From contig NW_027191465.1 of the NCBI RefSeq assembly GCF_011745625.1, positions 558,001 to 611,102 on the forward strand: a DNA stretch of 53,102 nucleotides, given 5' to 3'. Within the stretch, counting starts at the first letter, position 1. The number at the start of each line of letters is the position of its first letter. This stretch comes from Cladosporium halotolerans (lineage: Eukaryota). Shown here one piece after another: positions 5,392 through 23,149 of this stretch. Below the pieces are notes generated by a model, which did no database searches, was not told the DNA's origin, and saw nothing but the letters and a program-made list of their open reading frames with translations. A program made the position numbers and the translations under genes.

Positions 5392-5759
5392 TGACTGGGG
5401 AGTCTAGGAGGGGTTTTGATGGAGATGGATGTCTGTAGCGTTTGCAATGAATGCCACTCTAGATCGAGTTCACCAGGAAAGTTGCAGCTTTTGACGAATA
5501 ATGCGTTCCGAATTGCATATCGTTCTTGAACAGTGCCATGCTATTCAAACCTTTTCTATCGCAAGTTCGATCGAGCGTGGCTCGCAGAATTACTTAGAAC
5601 TCGCCATGAAGGCTCGAGGGACCTAAGGCATAAGCTGAACAGGCAGCCCAACTCAGAATGCGACGACGTGATTGGCTCGGATAAGCCCGGCGCTAGCTGC
5701 GGTACCACAAGCACAATACATCTGCCTCGACTTGCCTTGAGGCCTCAAGATCAGGTAAT

Positions 5760-6105
5760 CCATCAAGAATGCAGCGGAATTGACGTATTTTCGAGCTCTT
5801 CATCATCAATATTGATGGCTATCAACCAGCGCTTTGATGGTTTGATGCGCAGTCTCTCCTTTTTCGATGGCGCACGCAGGCGATGCAGGGCTGGTGTGTT
5901 ACGGTCGGATCACATCTGTTGTAGATAAAGGTAAGGCAAACCATCAAGAGAACTGCATAATGAGCGTATTTCTGAGCTCTTCATCATCAACTTGATGGCT
6001 ATCAACCAGCGCTTCGATGGCCTGATGCGCAATCTCTCCTTTTTTGATGGCGCAGGGAAGCGATGCAGGGCTGGTGTCTCACGGTCGGATCACATCTATG
6101 GTAGA
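5760..6105. repeat. Diverged tandem duplication, period about 181 bp, 2 copies
   Basis: The block GTATTT...GAGCTCTTCATCATCAA...GATGGCTATCAACCAGCGCTT...CGATGCAGGGCTGGTGT...ACGGTCGGATCACATCT starts at 5785 and again at 5966. Confidence 0.9.
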
Positions 6106-11010: not shown

Positions 11011-13536
11011 ATGAGCGGAGAACACAACGCTGGAGGTCCGTCGCACTCGGCGCAATCTTCCATTTCGCAGGTAGACAGCACGGCGAGCACGCTGCTGGCG
11101 AGTCCGAGCACGACGCATTCGGTGTCGTTTGAGAAGGCGCGGGCTGTTGAGGGTTACAAAGCCCGGCAACATGATCAGAGCCTCGCGCAGTCGAAGGACG
11201 ATAACGACTTTGATGCCTTGAGGAGAGAAGGCTCTGAGGACGACGACGAAAATTCCGGGACTCGAGCGGGCTTCAAGGCCCGGCGATACGGCCAGGGCCG
11301 CGAGCAGTCAAGGGACGACGACGATTATGGTCTCGAGGAGAAGGATTCTGGAGACGACGATGATGACGAAGAGGCCGACCGTGTATTTGGTCGCAATGCT
11401 GCCGCGTTGAACGGGAGCACGAAGCTTTCGTCGGAGGAGAAGTCCCAGGCTCGTTTGGGTTTGAAGACCCAGCGACACGGCCAGGGCCGCGAGAAGTCGA
11501 AAGACGGCGATGACGCTTATAGTCTCGAGAAAGAGGGCTTTGAGGACGACGGCGAAGAGGCTGACCGTTTGCTTGGTCGCGATGCTGCCGCGCTGAAGCG
11601 GAGAGCGAAGCTTTCGTCGTCGCTTGAGAATTCCAGAGCTGGCGCGGGCTTCAGAGCCCGGCAGGATGATGAAAGCTTCGGTGAGGCGAAAGATGTTGAT
11701 GATGATGATGTTTATGATTCCAAGAAAGAGGATTCAGAGGACGGCGATGAAGAGGCCGACCATCTGCTGGGTCGCGATGCCGCGGCATTGAATGAACGAC
11801 CTGCGGCTGCGGTTGCGACACATCCCGAGGACGAGCCTGCGGTTGCGCCGGTGGAAAAGAAGGCGAGGCCGATCTCGTGGTCTGAGTTGCCAAAGAAGGG
11901 CCAGTTGGCGATTTTGACGCTCGCTCGGCTGTCTGAGCCGTTGACGCAGCAAGGCTTGCAGAGTTATATGTTTTATCAGCTCAAGTCGTTCACGCTGCCG
12001 AATGGAGAAGCGCCGTCGGACAGCATGGTGGCGAGCCAGGCTGGTATTCTCGCGGCGTCGTTCACCGGTGCGCAGTTCTTGACGGCTTTTATGTGGGGCC
12101 GACTTGCAGACTGGGAAGGCCTTGGGCGCAAGAGAGTCATTTTGATCGGCTTGCTTGGGACCGCTGTCGGAAGTCTTGGGTTTGGCTTCAGCAGGTCTTT
12201 CGCGGCTGCGGTCTTCTGGCGATGTTTGGGTGGTATGCTCAATGGCAACATCGGTGTCATGCGGACCATGATCTCTGAGATCGTGCGCGAGAAAAAGTAC
12301 CAGAGCAGGGCGTTCTTGTTGATGCCAATGTGCTTCAACATTGGTGTTATCATAGGGCCACTGCTGGGTGGTTGGCTGGCCGATCCTGTCGGCAGCTACC
12401 CTCAGACCTTTGGACCGGGTGGGTCAATTGGCGGCAAAGACGGCGTGGGGTGGTTGATGAGGTTCCCGTACGCTTTGCCGAATGTTGTCAACGCATGCTT
12501 TCTTGTTGGAAGCGCGTTGGGTATTTTGTTTGGTCTGGAAGAAACGCTGGAGGCTTTGAGAGACAAGCCGGATTATCCTTTGCGCTTCAGCCGGTGGGTC
12601 TTGAGGGTGTGTACTGGGTCTCGGCAGTCGCATGGGTATGCTGCGTTGGCCGGAGACGTCGTGGCGTGCGAGGCAGGTGATGTGGAGTTGCAGCCTGCTG
12701 CGCGCGACGAGGTTGAGAGACCGAGGGTGCGGCGCCAGCTTCCGTTCCGTCGTATTTGGACTCGCAATGTGGTCTTGACGTTCATTGCTCACGGTATGCT
12801 GGCGATGCATGTGGGGACGTTCAACAACTTGTGGTTTGTCTTCTTGTCGACGCCACGCTTCGATCCATCGGCATCCTCAGGAGAAGATCGAGACAGGCCA
12901 TCGCTCACATTGCCTCCGGGTTACAGGCCGCATGTTCCGTTCACTTTTACCGGTGGACTTGCGTTGCCGCCGCCGAGTATCGGCACGGCACTTGCAATCC
13001 TCGGAGTGATTGGAATAACGATGCAGCTACTGCTGTTCCCGACTGTGAGCTTCAAGCTTGGAACAACACGCTCCTTCCGATGGAGTCTGTTGTTGTTCCC
13101 TGTCTCTTACTTCTTGGCGCCATATCTGGCGATAGTACCCTCATCATCTTCGCCACCAGAGCAGGCGTCAGGCGCGTGGGTTTGGTTGGGTATCACGCTT
13201 GTGCTGACCGTGCAGGTGACTGCTCGCACGTTCGCGTTGCCTTCGACTGCCATTCTAGTGAACAACTGCTGTCCACATCCAAGTGTGCTTGGTAGTGTGC
13301 ATGGTGTGGCGCAGAGTGTCTCGAGCTTGACCAGGACTGTCGGGCCAGTGCTTGCGGGTTGGCTGTATGGCGCTGGCTTGAACAGGGGTGTCATTGGCCT
13401 GGCCTGGTGGTGCATGTGTGTGGTGGCTGTGGTGGGAGCCGTCGCTGGGCGCTTCGTCAGGGAAGGCAGCGGCCACGACATCATGCTGGATGGCGAAGAT
13501 GATGAGGGTCAAGGGGGGAGAGTGGCGAGGAAGTAG
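11011..13536 (+). CDS. Major facilitator superfamily transporter (YCR023C/ZIF-like) with a long acidic repeated N-terminus
   Basis: About 12 hydrophobic segments, MFS motif A (WGRLADWEGLGRKRVIL), RCLGGMLNGNIGVMRTMISE, FNIGVIIGPLLGG. First ATG at 11011. Confidence 0.88.
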   Translation: MSGEHNAGGPSHSAQSSISQVDSTASTLLASPSTTHSVSFEKARAVEGYKARQHDQSLAQSKDDNDFDALRREGSEDDDENSGTRAGFKARRYGQGREQSRDDDDYGLEEKDSGDDDDDEEADRVFGRNAAALNGSTKLSSEEKSQARLGLKTQRHGQGREKSKDGDDAYSLEKEGFEDDGEEADRLLGRDAAALKRRAKLSSSLENSRAGAGFRARQDDESFGEAKDVDDDDVYDSKKEDSEDGDEEADHLLGRDAAALNERPAAAVATHPEDEPAVAPVEKKARPISWSELPKKGQLAILTLARLSEPLTQQGLQSYMFYQLKSFTLPNGEAPSDSMVASQAGILAASFTGAQFLTAFMWGRLADWEGLGRKRVILIGLLGTAVGSLGFGFSRSFAAAVFWRCLGGMLNGNIGVMRTMISEIVREKKYQSRAFLLMPMCFNIGVIIGPLLGGWLADPVGSYPQTFGPGGSIGGKDGVGWLMRFPYALPNVVNACFLVGSALGILFGLEETLEALRDKPDYPLRFSRWVLRVCTGSRQSHGYAALAGDVVACEAGDVELQPAARDEVERPRVRRQLPFRRIWTRNVVLTFIAHGMLAMHVGTFNNLWFVFLSTPRFDPSASSGEDRDRPSLTLPPGYRPHVPFTFTGGLALPPPSIGTALAILGVIGITMQLLLFPTVSFKLGTTRSFRWSLLLFPVSYFLAPYLAIVPSSSSPPEQASGAWVWLGITLVLTVQVTARTFALPSTAILVNNCCPHPSVLGSVHGVAQSVSSLTRTVGPVLAGWLYGAGLNRGVIGLAWWCMCVVAVVGAVAGRFVREGSGHDIMLDGEDDEGQGGRVARK
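11137..11793 (+). repeat. About 4 coding tandem repeats (about 60 aa each, first one partial) in the MFS N-terminus
   Basis: Units resemble S-x-x-x-x-G-F-K-A-R-x-x-G-Q-G-R-E-x-S-K-D-D-D-x-Y-x-L-E-K-E-x-S-E-D-D-x-E-E-A-D-R-L-L-G-R-D-A-A-A-L. Confidence 0.85.
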
Positions 13537-17641: not shown

Positions 17642-20600
17642 ATGGCTCGGTACTCCAGAGACCAGCGCCGCCGGTCAGCGCCCTCCACCTCACCGTGGAT
17701 GACCATGTTCTACATCTGTGCCCTCGTTCTGGCGCCCATGCTCTTCATGGGCATGATCCCCTCGGCCAACGCCCAGGAGGATGCTAAGGATACTTCTGTC
17801 ACTGGACCTGGTAAGTCAATGGACATCCCGTGGGCGCTCGCTTGCGCGGAGTCGCCTCAGATCACAATGGATCGCTCCGGGAAGCACGTTTCGCTAACTT
17901 TCCTCAGTCATCGGTATTGATCTCGGAACCACCTACTCTTGCGTTGGTATCATGAAGGGCGGCAAAGTCGAAATCCTCGTCAACGACCAGGGTAACCGTA
18001 TCACTCCTTCCTGGGTTGCCTGGAACGATGAGGAGCGTCTTGTCGGTGATGCGGCGAAGAACCAGTTCGCCGCCAACCCGCACCGCACCATCTTCGACAT
18101 CAAGCGTCTCATTGGCAGGAAGTACAGCGAGAAGGACATTCAGAGAGATATCAAGCACTTCCCCTTCAAGGTTGTCGAGAAGAACGGCCAGCCTCGCGTC
18201 CGCGTCGAGGTTTCTGGGTAAGCATTTGCGGAACTGCGGAGACACGGAACACCTGCTGACATGGTCTCACAGCGCTGAGAAGACCTTCACCCCCGAGGAG
18301 GTTTCTTCCATGATCCTCGGAAAGATGAAGGAGGTCGCCGAGCAGTACCTCGGTGAGAAGGTCGTCAACGCCGTTGTCACCGTCCCCGCCTACTTCAACG
18401 ACGCCCAGCGTGCCGCCACCAAGGACGCTGGTACTATCGCCGGTCTTAATGTCATGCGTGTGGTCAACGAGCCCACCGCCGCCGCCCTCGCCTACGGTCT
18501 CGACAAGACCGACCAGGAACGCCAGATCATCGTCTACGATCTCGGTGGTGGTACCTTCGATGTCTCCATCTTGACTGTCGACCAGGGTGTCTTCGAGGTC
18601 CAGGCCACCGCCGGTGACACTCACCTCGGTGGCGAAGACTTCGACCAGCGCGTTGTTGACTATCTGACCAAGACCTACAACAAGAAACACGACACCGATA
18701 TCACCAAGAACGCGAAGACCATGTCCAAGCTGAAGCGCGAGGTCGAGAAGGCCAAGCGCACTCTGTCCAGCCAGATGAGCACCAAGATCGAGATCGAGGC
18801 CTTCCACGAGGGCAACGACCTGTCCGAGACCCTCACCCGCGCCAAGTTCGAGGAGCTCAACAACGATCTGTTCAAGAAGACCCTCAAGCCGGTTGAGCAG
18901 GTCCTGAAGGACGCCAAGCTGAAGAAGAGCGACATTGATGACATTGTTCTGGTCGGTGGTTCCACTCGTATCCCCAAGGTTCAGGCCATGTTGGAGGAGT
19001 ACTTTGGCAAGAAGGCCTCGAAGGGTATCAACCCCGATGAGGCTGTTGCCTACGGTGCTGCCGTTCAGGGTGGTGTTCTGTCCGGTGAGGAGGAGGCTAA
19101 GGAAATCGTCCTCATGGATGTGAACCCTCTGACCCTTGGTATCGAGACCACTGGCGGCGTCATGACCCACCTCATCAAGCGTGGCACCACCATCCCGACC
19201 AAGAAGAGCCAGATCTTCTCCACCGCCGCCGATAACCAGCCCGTGGTCCTGATCCAGGTCTTTGAGGGTGAGCGCACGATGACTAAGGACAAGGCAAGTA
19301 ATAAATCCCAGAACACTGTACAGTTCAATTGCTAACTTCGTCGCAGTAAGTAATATTTCCCCTTCCCCACCCGTGAAGTTCTTCCCAATGTCAGGGGATC
19401 TTGCCTCGTGCCTCTTCAGGTGAGGTAGTGCAGGCCTGCACTTGCCTACCCCAGGGCGTGGCACCTACCCGGAACGTGGCCTGCACCTGCTCACTCCAGT
19501 ACTATTGCTACTGCCTCGAGTACGCGGGCCCGGATGGGCACAAAACCCGCTCTCTCGCCTCGGTCTTTGCACTCTCCACTCTTCACTCCCCTGGCACTCC
19601 GCCCATTTCACGCCTACCAGGCAATGTCATTGACATGGCATACGACGCTCCCGACATCCAGACGCTCATTCTCCACCTCACCTGGCTCTGTCTCAATGTC
19701 TCCGACTGGATCAACCCTCGCTTCCGTGCGGTTTTTCCTACTTCTGACCATCTGGCTGCTTTGTTCCCTCAGCTCGGCATCACCTTCTGTGAAGGACTTT
19801 TCGACGTCGTCCAAGCTGCTACTGCGCCACGCATCGAGTGGTTCCTGTCTCTCCCCGCCGACATCCCACACCACGTGTGGGGCATCTATGTCCTCGTTCT
19901 TCGTAAAGGCTCCCGCTACAAGCTCTACATCGGCTCTGGCACTGGTATCAAAGATGGCGTGCGGTCCCGCATTCTACAACACGAAGGCCGCAGTGTGGAG
20001 CCTAGTCACGTCAAGCAAGCAAAGGATGATGGTTACAAGCAAGTCCACAGCTCTCTGCTCGCCTGGTGCAACCCGCCCACCGCAGCCCAAGTGCCAGCTT
20101 TCCGCACCGCTATCATTGCAATCGAGGCCGCACTCCACCTCATCTTCTGGCCTATGTATAAGCGCACCACACGATACAGCTTCCCTGATGGTCCTTGGGC
20201 TCGGAAGGAGTACCCGTGGGACGGTCTCTGCCACCACAACCCACTCACCGAAGGCGTCATCAAGGGTGTCGACGACATCGACCTCACGCCCGAGCAACTT
20301 GAGCACATGGCTAGCGTCGCTGCTGAACGGAGACGAGTCGTCAGGAATACTTGGGACCGCAAACAGCGTGCAAGCCCAAGACCTGGGTACATGGCTAAGC
20401 GTCTCGCCGTCTCAAGGAAGTACCAGCCCACAGCTACCGCCAAATACCACCAGGTCATCGCAAGCAAGGCCCACCACTGCCCCCTCTGCAATGTCACGAA
20501 GTCCTGCAAGTCCCAAATGGAACGACACTATCGAACAGAACGTCACATCAACGCCGTCGCCGATGGATGTGGTCCACTTCACTGCGTGCCGTGCAATTAT

Positions 20601-21326
20601 CATGCTAGGGACCGTTCCAACCTCCGCCGCCACTGCACGAGCAACAAACACCAAACGCTGTGCCCGCCGTCGACTTAACATTCACACCACTCACACTCAA
20701 ACCTCGCTCCTTGACATTGGCTTGTACTGATTTGGACGTCGTCCAATTTCAACGTGACCACTTGCTAACAACCTTTTCACAGCAACCTCCTCGGCAAGTT
20801 CGAGCTCTCCGGCATTCCTCCCGCGCCTCGCGGCCAGCCCCAGATCGAGGTGACTTTCGAGCTCGACGCTAACGGCATCCTCCGCGTGAGCGCCGGCGAC
20901 AAGGGCAGCGGCAAGACCGAGTCTATTACCATCACCAACGACAAGGGCCGCCTTAGCGCCGAGGAGATCGAGCGCATGGTCGAAGAGGCGGAGAAGTACG
21001 CGGACGAGGACAAGGCGACGCGCGAGCGCATCGAGTCGCGCAACGGCCTCGAGAACTACGCCTACTCGCTCAAGAACCAGCTCAACGACGACGAAGGCCT
21101 CGGCGGCAAGATCGACGAGGACGACAAGGACACCCTCCTCGAGGCCGTCAAGGAGGCCCAGGACTGGCTCGAGGAGAACGCCGCCACCGCCACCTCTGAG
21201 GACTTCGACGAGCAGAAGCAGAAGCTGAGCGACGTCGCGTACCCCATCACTTCGAAGCTGTACGAGGGCGGCGCCGGTGGCATGCCCGATGACGACGACG
21301 AGCCTTCCGGCCACGACGAGTTGTAA
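17642..21326 (+). CDS. KAR2: ER Hsp70 chaperone BiP, 680 aa; exons 17642-17810, 17908-18217, 18273-19292 and 20783-21326
   Basis: Signal peptide, [42 protein letters not shown], spliced [36 protein letters not shown], and C-terminal HDEL*. Introns at 17811-17907, 18218-18272 and 19293-20782. Confidence 0.97.
19294..19346 (+). other. Internal 53-nt GC-AG intron splitting the donor of the external intron
   Basis: Donor GCAAGT at 19294, branch GCTAAC at 19331-19336, acceptor CAG at 19344-19346. Removing it joins G19293 to TAAGT and gives the canonical donor GTAAGT. Confidence 0.85.
19635..20678 (+). CDS. Intron-encoded GIY-YIG endonuclease with two C-terminal C2H2 (matrin/JAZ-spacing) zinc fingers, 347 aa from the first in-frame ATG
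   Basis: [22 protein letters not shown]...GVRSRILQH...IAIEAAL supplies GIY, YIG, Arg, His and Glu. The two fingers are CPLC-x12-H-x5-H and CVPC-x12-H-x5-H. The frame is open from 19377. Confidence 0.88.
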   Translation: MAYDAPDIQTLILHLTWLCLNVSDWINPRFRAVFPTSDHLAALFPQLGITFCEGLFDVVQAATAPRIEWFLSLPADIPHHVWGIYVLVLRKGSRYKLYIGSGTGIKDGVRSRILQHEGRSVEPSHVKQAKDDGYKQVHSSLLAWCNPPTAAQVPAFRTAIIAIEAALHLIFWPMYKRTTRYSFPDGPWARKEYPWDGLCHHNPLTEGVIKGVDDIDLTPEQLEHMASVAAERRRVVRNTWDRKQRASPRPGYMAKRLAVSRKYQPTATAKYHQVIASKAHHCPLCNVTKSCKSQMERHYRTERHINAVADGCGPLHCVPCNYHARDRSNLRRHCTSNKHQTLCPPST

Positions 21327-23149
21327 GAGGTTCGTCATAGTCGAGGACGCTTTGACGTTGTGGTTTTTTCTTTTTGCTGGCTTGTGGATATACGCGAAAT
21401 CAAAGAATTGAAGAAAGTACACCATGTTCCTGGCCCTTTTTTTTTTTCTTAAGAGAAAGGAGTTGCCTTGTTTGCTATAGATTCTACTACACGAATACCT
21501 TGATCTTGTATCGTTCTCCACAGTTTCCTATCTTTTGATCTGCGAACTCGTAGGGCTTGCCAGGTGGTTTGCTGGGGCTACCTTGCAAGGGCTTGATGCC
21601 AGAACGAGCACCTCGCGAGTGCTCCATCTTCCTGGCCCCTGTTCACACGAAGCTGGCGGCCAGGCGTGACGAGAAAGCTCTCGCCAAGTGCACAAACTTG
21701 CTGCCAAGTCACAGCGGCAAGAGACCGCAAACTCGACTTCTGTGGCTCACGGGCAATGCTTCGAACCTCGCCAGGGCATATCGTCAGTACGTGCTATGAA
21801 GATGAAATAACAAGAGGTCGTCATCATGTCACCTGCACGTAAATGCTCACTCCGCCACGAACTCTCGATCGGGCGGTCGAACGAAGGAGGTCTGATCTAG
21901 TTTAATCTGATCTTATCGGAAGCCAAGTGCCCGAGGGCCCGAGGCATGGATACACCAAGCGGCGAGGCTATCCTAGGTACACGCTGTACTGTAAGGACAC
22001 CACGTGGCGGACACCGCGGTGGCGTCTTGGAGCCGAAGCGAAGCGAAGCAGTCCGTGTGCATGCAGATTGTCAGATTCCCATGCCTCGCCCCATCGCATT
22101 TGCTAGAATTCCCATGTGCACCGTGCTCACTGCACATCAGCACTCTGCCCTAACCCCGAGCAGAGGGAACTGCTTTGGCGGGCGCTGAAGGTTGGAAGAA
22201 GGACTGGAAGATCCGGCGCGCGCGCCCCGCGCCGAATGCCCTTCGCCTGCCATTTCCGCCTACCTTAGGTAAGCTACCTGAGGACTCGCGTCCGGAGTGT
22301 GGTAGACCTGAGCCCCGTCGGAAAAGCGTCCTCCCGCCATCTCAGAGCAAACCCATCCATCCTCCCCACCAGATCCTACACTTGATACACACCCCAGCCT
22401 CATCAGTCCCAATACACCCTCGCGCATCATCCCGCCCAAACGCTCGACTCAAACACGCACAGGCGCGTAACCGCCCGCCTCGCACAGTCCACCATCCACA
22501 TCCCAAGGAGCCGTCTCCGAACCCCCGCCGCGCACCTCCAGAAGAGACCAGAAACCCACCACGCGCAAGCATCCGCGCCCGCCTCCCCGCGGCCCCGATC
22601 CCAGACCCCAGGCACGACCCTCCCATCTCCCTCGAACTGCCCTCCCAGCCCGCAAGCCTCATCGCCCGCTGGCCCTGCGCCCTGCCCTCCTGCCGGGACT
22701 ACGGACAGCTGTGCTACCGGCGGGACGCCATGCACGCTAGAGACTGGATCCGGGCGGCGGGGGTGAGGATGTCGCTGTAGAGCACGTGGGAGAGGGGCAT
22801 TTTCCGAGAGAGATCAGAATGTGCAAGGCGATAGATAGGAGGCACGAGTCTCGCGGCGCTTGGGAGGAAAGAAGTGGGTAGAGATTTCGTAGAAGCAGAG
22901 TAGAGGTTTCATTAGGTCGTGAGGGAGGAAAATGCCAAATCGAGCGTAAAACTACCCCAACAAAGCAAACAAACACCGTGTGTGTGTCAATCTTTCAAAG
23001 GGAAATTCCCTCCTGTCACCAGACCAGCCCAGACGCCCAAAAATGCAATAAACCCTCCCCTGGAATCCTCCCAAACCCAGCAAAACCCAAACGCCTTGCT
23101 CCCGCTTCCAACCATAACGCTGTCACCAACAGAAAGCCACAAAAACAAA

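Follow-up and report, generated by a model that had tools for sequence, protein, structure and literature searches.

The window analysed here is a stretch of 53,102 nucleotides (nt) of fungal nuclear DNA from Cladosporium halotolerans, and it contains the gene for BiP, the Hsp70 protein of the endoplasmic reticulum (17898-21326, on the forward strand, as are all gene and intron features described below), whose product ends in the C-terminal sequence HDEL. A BiP exon at 18274-19292 and the last BiP exon at 20783-21326 are separated by an intervening sequence of 1490 nt (19293-20782), within which lies an open reading frame (ORF) for a protein of 347 amino acids. We propose, with a probability of about 0.82, that BiP is interrupted by a true [D1,2] spliceosomal twin intron (stwintron) with its 5' module at 19293-19351; this stwintron would leave the transcript in two steps, and its short internal intron would have been inserted later than the external intron that carries the ORF.

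The exon boundaries are fixed by the frame of the protein. The upstream exon matches the Pfam HSP70 profile from position 105 to 445 (E 9e-166) and the last exon matches it from 448 to 599 (E 2e-42). Profile position 445 falls on the Asp codon 19288-19290 and position 448 on the second residue of the last exon, so that exactly one split codon and no gap can lie between the two: the terminal AA of the upstream exon begins an Asn codon, C20783 completes it, and the junction 19292/20783 is required. The upstream exon ends with ...GACAA at A19292, and the two bases that follow (19293-19294) are GG, which provide no usable donor. This exon end and the GG behind it had been pointed out in the initial annotation, and both are borne out by the sequence together with the HSP70 profile frame. 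Both BiP exons are intact through to HDEL and the stop codon TAA (21324-21326), and the translation of 18274-19292, with the AAG codon read through at its end, is identical at 340 of 340 residues to P0180, the public C. halotolerans BiP model.

A canonical donor can be rebuilt at this position from two parts. G19293, which is also present as G in an independent DNA contig, would be the first base of the external intron's split donor. Directly after it lies a U2-type GC-AG intron of 53 nt (19294-19346), with the donor GCAAGT at 19294-19299, 31 bases, the branch site GCTAAC at 19331-19336, 7 bases, and the acceptor CAG at 19344-19346. This acceptor is followed immediately by TAAGT (19347-19351), with which the rest of the external intron begins (19347-20782), and which is followed in turn by a CT-rich leader, the ORF, a second GCTAAC branch site at 20764-20769 and the acceptor CAG at 20780-20782. 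Excision of 19294-19346 puts G19293 before TAAGT and yields GTAAGT, a canonical six-base donor, as had been predicted from the letters. The external intron alone (G19293 plus 19347-20782) is 1437 nt long.

In the proposed route, a U2 spliceosome would first excise the short GC-AG intron by intron definition, probably upon transcription, which would join G19293 to TAAGT. The 1437-nt external intron would then be removed from the GTAAGT donor so formed, by way of the branch site at 20764-20769 and the acceptor at 20780-20782, to give the in-frame junction 19292/20783. Any other pairing of sites leads to a premature stop, and the order of splicing is therefore obligatory. Three of these failures had been foreseen and all three hold on the sequence: splicing the GC donor directly to 20782 leaves one G behind and shifts the frame, stopping after the first step gives AAG followed by TAA, and use of the overlapping GTAAGT at 19346 retains an in-frame TAA at 19333-19335. 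Sequence logic thus supports the earlier claim that ordered two-step splicing is obligatory for BiP, as this order would be the sole canonical route to the in-frame junction that is observed in contigs.

We also evaluated how often such a module occurs. A degenerate pattern for the [D1,2] 5' module matched a single site in the 53,102 bases, both strands included, and at this site (19293-19351) it can be parsed in two overlapping ways, both of which end at the same TAAGT. Among 200 first-order Markov shuffles the mean number of matches was 0.085, with one match or more in 8% of the shuffles. The internal 53-nt intron shows no special RNA structure (z 0.37, or 0.33 with its flanks), and 19200-20900 has no Rfam match on either strand at E ≤ 1. 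By that test the external intron is not a group I or group II intron, and canonical spliceosomal signals are present in it.

Support from DNA and RNA was drawn from the assembled contigs of four runs rather than from reads, and contigs drop rare forms. X2 is a DNA run with another organism label, X7 is an RNA run by guess, and X15 is an RNA run from a metatranscriptome. An X2 contig of 11,280 nt spans 19194-21327 without a gap and has the same GG at the split donor, which indicates that the GG is no assembly error. It differs from the window by six substitutions (19269, 19278, 19284, 19290, 20840 and 21095), all of them exonic and all at third codon positions, which shows purifying selection on both exons in the very frame for which the junction 19292/20783 is required. 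The final junction, which the initial annotation had named as a check, is present in contigs: the joint from 19292 to 20783, which skips 1490 nt with GG..AG ends, was found in one X7 contig at a depth of 459 and in one X15 contig at a depth of 4.8. Combined with a C>T variant at 19290, this joint recurs in X7, X15 and X16, and the junction contig that carries the haplotype of the window does not differ from it anywhere on the 5' side. The intron itself is covered in X7 from 19417 to 20806 with 0 differences, at a depth of 5-11. The mature product is seen directly in these contigs, and the two-step route is inferred.

The gap in X7 cover at 19294-19416 was considered as a transcript start of the ORF's own and was dropped, a gap in contig cover being no evidence. 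Another X7 contig, of 303 nt and depth 10.9, joins 19625 to 20777 with about 64 undefined letters between them and only 30 letters on its short side; possible explanations are a derivative that lacks the ORF, an alternative transcript, or chimeric assembly. The X2 contig also shows an uneven spread of differences from the window. Four of the six, all synonymous, are packed into 22 exon bases (19269-19290) beside the 5' end of the intron in a comparison of 3 kb, while the 1490-nt intron and some 860 nt of the upstream exon (18405-19268) are identical between the two intron-bearing genomes. The alternative four-base haplotype at 19269-19290 is the haplotype of the more distant runs, and these exon differences look like a short conversion tract beside the insertion site.

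Relatives were compared through a protein search with the last 40 residues of the exon-into-intron read-through; among the 120 matches listed, 113 have the FEGER..TK anchor. After this anchor 103 of the 113 continue as DNN.LGKF, and are spliced or intron-less, and the other 10 break off at the site. P0180, an annotated gene model, stops at ...TKDK, an end that the splicing intermediate would also have and that is reached if 19294-19346 is excised; plain read-through in the window would add 13 residues (14 with the final Cys) beyond it. P0175, the nearest relative among the matches listed, is identical at 317 of the 340 exon residues (93%), and its tail tracks frame 0 of the window (DKASN) before it switches to frame +1, with a length difference of about 2 nt between the two. 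Because Lys is followed by an Ala codon, the donor must begin with GC, and the later A-N and A-V-S agree with GCTAAC and CAG/TAAGT, respectively. Judged from this peptide, P0175 would keep the donor, branch site and acceptor of the internal intron while the middle has changed frame, which is the pattern of intron evolution. In BiPs at a greater distance (83-87% identical) the tail ends as DK-stop, DKSV or DKCV, corresponding to plain GT donors, in one of them as DNVS, with an intron one base further on, and in two as VSST or VNSS, with a short in-frame intron after TK. We read the split donor as lineage-specific and secondary, and it would occur only in the lineage of the window and in P0175, the nearest relative.

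Public gene models have been affected by this arrangement. C. halotolerans BiP is split in the public annotation into P0180, a 'BiP' of 500 amino acids that ends ...TKDK, and P0001, a 'hypothetical protein' of 472 amino acids in which the nuclease ORF is joined to the BiP C-terminus; the split donor and the ORF have thus broken BiP into two wrong gene models. Chimeric models of ORF and BiP tail account for 2 of 27 ORF homologues, from C. halotolerans and from Elsinoe australis (53%; a 'glucose-regulated' model). The ORF part of the C. halotolerans chimera is the same as the window's in the alignment (BLASTP 98% over 86% of the query).

Homologous introns were sought by a metagenome scan with the intron ORF, which gave at least 14 loci (L001-L014). 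In 3 of the 14 listed loci (L001, L002 and L011) the ORF lies between pieces of BiP exon. L001 and L002 have the intron at the window's exact BiP position with plain donors, GTAAGT and GTGAGT respectively, with which the rebuilt GTAAGT of the window is colinear; when aligned to them, the window is longer by 52-53 bases, all located precisely at the donor. L011 is a degraded copy 5 nt upstream of the window's BiP position, with the donor GTATGT. The other host genes, confirmed by Pfam, are PEPCK (L004, L005), aconitase (L006/L007, L013 and L014, with the intron of L014 at a different position from that of the others) and SF3b1 (L008/L009). The 5' end is unreadable in L003, L010, L012 and L013. 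Where it can be read, in eight distinct element-bearing introns of BiP, PEPCK, aconitase and SF3b1, a split donor is present in none, and all eight have a GT donor followed by a CT-rich leader, like the window's external intron after TAAGT. Searches of genome contigs and of viral contigs gave no further relatives of the locus.

Two side observations concern the sites at which these introns are found. In PEPCK (L004 236-300, L005 17-1595) the ORF-bearing intron lies at either of two positions 15-16 nt apart, with a micro-exon for EMKK between them, and an intron of 52-55 nt stands at whichever of the two the long one does not occupy; a short intron beside a long ORF-bearing one thus recurs in another host gene. 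In the TMTK-DNN stretch of BiP the intron stands after TK in L011, P0252 and P0263, after DN(2) in the window, L001 and L002, and one base further on in P0213; in P0252 a copy of TMTK stands on each side of the insert, in the manner of a target-site duplication. This stretch may be an intron hot spot and possibly also a case of the published one-nucleotide intron shift.

The initial annotation had suggested that the split donor gates removal of the element, and that it may assist recognition of a 1.4 kb intron or allow the nuclease to be expressed. As a functional gate it would delay removal of the external intron, aid its recognition, or let the intermediate persist for nuclease production. 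The order of splicing, obligatory by sequence logic, agrees with such a role, as does the split donor in P0175, and there is a formal likeness to the recursive splice sites of long animal introns. We nevertheless consider a gate improbable. The homologous ORF-bearing introns are 835-1506 nt long and have a plain GT in intact conserved genes, and a split donor is therefore not needed for the splicing of such introns. Of the homologous elements, which the initial annotation had named as a check, the nearest relative P0175 keeps the split donor, judged from its peptide, and none of the eight more distant introns has one; retention in P0175 is, moreover, equally expected if BiP is indispensable. 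The intermediate stops BiP at a TAA 286 nt before the ATG of the ORF, with other ATGs between them, and expression of the nuclease from it would need reinitiation downstream of a long reading frame, which would make the intermediate a poor messenger for the ORF. For both expression and recognition, the motif block upstream of the ORF and the near-terminal inverted repeats described below would offer alternative routes.

In the recursive (ratchet-point) splicing of long animal introns an acceptor and a donor are juxtaposed, the intron is removed stepwise, and a donor is regenerated after the first step. The window's stwintron shares the regeneration of a donor after the first step. In recursive splicing, however, the regenerated GT lies wholly downstream of the AG, whereas in the window its G comes from upstream, and the first step in the window removes only 53 nt, so that the long intron is not subdivided. 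We see no sign of a regulatory role for the 53-nt intron, which would persist because BiP must stay in frame.

Several observations weigh against a two-step stwintron at this locus. The intermediate joint 19293/19347 is not among the joints of the four runs' assembled contigs, in which rare forms are lost. X7 is RNA only by guess and has two junction haplotypes, and its spliced contigs and its intron contigs perhaps come from different genomes; X15 and X16 have no intron cover, and the junctions there could derive from intron-free alleles. A second BiP copy is conceivable, the analysis having covered the window plus contigs rather than a whole genome. Conservation of the split donor in P0175 is read from a peptide and not from DNA, and the scenario for the origin of the internal intron is built on similarity over short stretches. 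The one-G missplice and the 19345/20783 decoy product, which would come from the wrong pairings described above, are likewise not among the contig joints, again with the proviso that contigs drop rare forms.

If this BiP copy were non-functional, the spliced contigs would come from an intron-free paralog or allele and splicing of the stwintron would not be required. The two junction haplotypes in X7 and the missing intron cover in X15 and X16 would agree with such a situation. It is very improbable, however, given that both exons run unbroken to HDEL and match the annotated BiP at 100% identity, that 6 of 6 differences between the two intron-bearing strains are at third codon positions, and that a junction contig of the window's own haplotype has no differences on the 5' side.

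One-step removal of 19293-20782 from a non-canonical GG donor, with the 53-nt module present by coincidence, would give the same final product as is seen in the contigs and would agree with the lack of an intermediate among their joints. This we find scarcely credible: G at +2 is not known from U2 donors, a complete module that rebuilds GTAAGT is expected by chance only 0.085 times per window and yet stands exactly at the base that the frame requires, and P0175 keeps the signals of the module but not its middle. An assembly error that leaves a simple GC-AG intron had been named in the initial annotation as what would refute a split donor. The probability of an assembly or sequencing error, by which one G would be extra and the intron really a simple GC-AG or GT-AG intron, is close to negligible, since the error would have to be systematic and shared by both assemblies: nothing favours it but the oddity of the GG, the X2 contig (from another run, under another organism label) has that GG and an identical intron without a gap, a GC donor would then reach 20782 in frame but the P0175 peptide DKAS needs AAG and then GC, and the ...TKDK end of P0180 is consistent with the window's DNA.

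These comparisons allow us to hypothesise how the stwintron arose. From the homologous introns, the external intron would be the older part, a member of a group of ORF-bearing spliceosomal introns with a plain GT and a CT-rich leader, and the 53-nt intron would be a later arrival, inserted between the G and the T of this donor in the lineage that comprises the window and P0175. Internal and external intron are identical at 8 of 10 positions from +7 to +16, a stretch over which none of the 513 other donor-like hexamers of the window exceeds 6 of 10. Their branch contexts, CAATTGCTAAC and CACTTGCTAAC, are identical at 10 of 11 positions. The resemblance of the internal intron's first 16 bases and branch context to the host intron suggests a local partial duplication or a self-derived insertion, and we regard one or other of these as its most likely source, without considering the matter settled.

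No similar copy of the 53-nt intron was found in the window or in the 14 element loci. Between 19293-19346 and the last 60 nt of the intron there is no inverted pair of 9 nt or more, the longest being the 6-nt pair GCAAGT/ACTTGC. The stwintron lies outside the repeated 'sister' NTIRE-10 type, in which complementary 10-nt elements near the ends draw the two terminal G's together and several similar copies are present, as neither such a 10-nt pair nor similar copies were found in the window and the 14 loci. A more specific origin is that the 53-nt intron is a miniature, ORF-less derivative of the host intron's ends, which re-entered the donor by reverse splicing or by nuclease-triggered repair. 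We hold this to be unlikely, albeit worth stating: if true, a spliceosomal intron would have been caught seeding a new intron from itself, at a site repeatedly struck by nuclear GIY-YIG 'homing-like' introns.

Stwintrons of the [D1,2] class have been described from Hypoxylaceae and Xylariaceae by Fekete, Flipphi, Karaffa and co-workers (PMC12403724, PMC9024468, PMC8469720), and this literature already contains several elements of the present case. These papers count more than 1500 [D1,2] stwintrons in Hypoxylaceae and report two-step splicing, a 'splinter' intermediate and the one-G missplice (PMC9024468, PMC12403724), describe an origin by insertion into the donor of an extant intron (PMC5639578, PMC12403724), and record the rare G1C2 internal donor in sister stwintrons of Xylaria longipes (PMC12403724). 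Like these published examples, the window's stwintron has an internal U2 intron between G1 and the second donor base and would be removed by two consecutive canonical splicings, and splicing from its internal donor to its external acceptor leaves one G and a frameshift. It shares the rare GC internal donor with the X. longipes sister stwintrons; unlike those, which are multi-copy and similar to one another, it is a single locus without copies in the window.

The differences are of size, content and host. In the Hypoxylon CO27-5 survey, stwintrons found with spacing-limited motif models are 114-313 nt long (PMC9024468), which agrees, for that one species and within the spacings that the models permit, with the statement in the initial annotation that known [D1,2] stwintrons are short and non-coding. 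By contrast, the window's stwintron measures 1490 nt, its external intron encodes the 347-residue GIY-YIG/zinc-finger protein, and its host is the BiP gene of a Cladosporium-like Dothideomycete. Because the published motif searches limit spacings, they could not have found the BiP stwintron. The [D1,2] class, the GC internal donor and the one-G missplice are already known; the novelty of this case lies in its size, in an external intron that codes for a protein, and in the host gene and lineage concerned.

The ORF of the external intron (19635-20678, with the stop codon TAA at 20676-20678) is predicted to encode a GIY-YIG-like nuclease domain at about residues 81-202 and two C-terminal C2H2 zinc fingers. 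An AlphaFold (AF2) model built from 22 sequences has a predicted local distance difference test (pLDDT) score of 85.8. Among known structures the model is matched best by the I-TevI catalytic domain (Z 7.3, root-mean-square deviation 2.2, 88 of 92 residues, model residues 81-202), above the next unrelated structure (4.9), T4 EndoII (4.7) and the UvrC GIY-YIG domain (4.4). A Foldseek search against PDB gave nothing at E ≤ 0.001, with the UvrC GIY-YIG domain at rank 27, and Pfam gave no family for the ORF at E ≤ 0.01. The zinc fingers match CTCF (E 1e-10). Y85, Y98, G100, R112 and E164 do not vary across the 22 sequences, and H116 and N202 vary very little; these residues would have the catalytic roles of GIY-YIG enzymes. 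With the modelled alpha/beta fold and conserved Tyr, Tyr-x-Gly, Arg, Glu and Asn, the protein can be assigned to the GIY-YIG superfamily.

I-TevI, the GIY-YIG homing endonuclease of a phage T4 group I intron, is an informative comparison. The ORF product resembles it in its predicted core fold, in an apparently modular build with a zinc-finger DNA-binding tail, and in its location at conserved intron sites of conserved genes. Unlike I-TevI, its carrier is a nuclear spliceosomal intron with GT/GC-AG ends and CTAAC, and for this ORF both nuclease activity and homing are predicted only. Homologues are numerous, with 27 in a first search and 537 clusters at E ≤ 1e-30; P0002, a closer relative, is 80% identical. 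Two of 30 long members of the ORF family (P0074 and P0161) are fused with Hsp70 elsewhere than at the window's position. Wherever the flanks can be read, members lie inside spliceosomal introns of conserved housekeeping genes. Indirect signs of homing are the occupation of the same BiP site in distant fungi, the presence in several conserved host genes, and the exon differences beside an identical intron. The ORF family looks like a putative nuclear, spliceosomal counterpart of homing-endonuclease introns. Literature searches of one library, by titles and abstracts, gave only organellar, Penelope and introner papers and none that describes a nuclear spliceosomal intron with a GIY-YIG gene.

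The external intron has further features in common with its relatives. A near-terminal inverted repeat is formed by a 5' arm at 19385-19396 and a 3' arm at 20709-20720 (12 nt, 92% complementary), about 40 nt from the donor and about 60 nt from the acceptor. Arms stand at the same relative place in L001 (138-149/1425-1436, 12/12) and in L002 (144-160/1272-1288, 17 nt, 88%); the window and L001 share an ATGTCA.GG core, whereas the L002 pair differs in sequence and is yet complementary. Paired as RNA, the arms would bring donor and branch site within about 90 nt of one another, and they could be an RNA stem that shortens a long intron or the terminal repeats of a mobile unit. We evaluated end pairing with duplexfold, using 130 nt from each intron end and 100 mononucleotide shuffles. 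The observed energy was reached by 0/100 shuffles for L001, L002 and L005 and by 5/100 for L008, compared with 8/100 for the window, 20/100 for L011, 27/100 for L014 and 50/100 for L004. Since pairing is significant in L001, L002 and L005 but not in the window, a 'zipper stem' is a lead rather than a result.

Upstream of the ORF, all four BiP elements contain repeats of a CGCACCTGC-like motif (window 19420-19500, L001 205-255, L002 165-215, L011 2745-2760), and this block is a candidate intronic promoter or protein-binding site. A GACGTCGTC-type motif, nearly palindromic, lies within the ORF at the codons for the conserved GLFDVVQ (window 19800-19814, L001 524-540), and a second occurrence adjoins the 3' repeat arm in the non-coding 3' part (window 20732-20746, L001 1411-1427). 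Repeats of GGACGTCGTC, which is similar to the GACGTCGTC motif, are present in the 5' leader of L005. Elsewhere in the window, 5747-6105 and 11128-11814 contain diverged tandem direct repeats at a spacing of about 180-190 nt (units of 63-114 and 78-80 nt, 63-89% identity), which are probably in coding sequence.

The BiP stwintron extends its class to a length of 1.5 kb and to a protein-coding external intron in an essential gene. Its value lies mostly in its context: spliceosomal introns with a GIY-YIG/zinc-finger gene form a large family, whose members occupy conserved sites in BiP, at other Hsp70 positions, and in PEPCK, aconitase and SF3b1. Within BiP, the TMTK-DNN site has several neighbouring intron positions among different fungi, and the stwintron shows that the ORF-bearing element can itself become a target of further intron gain.

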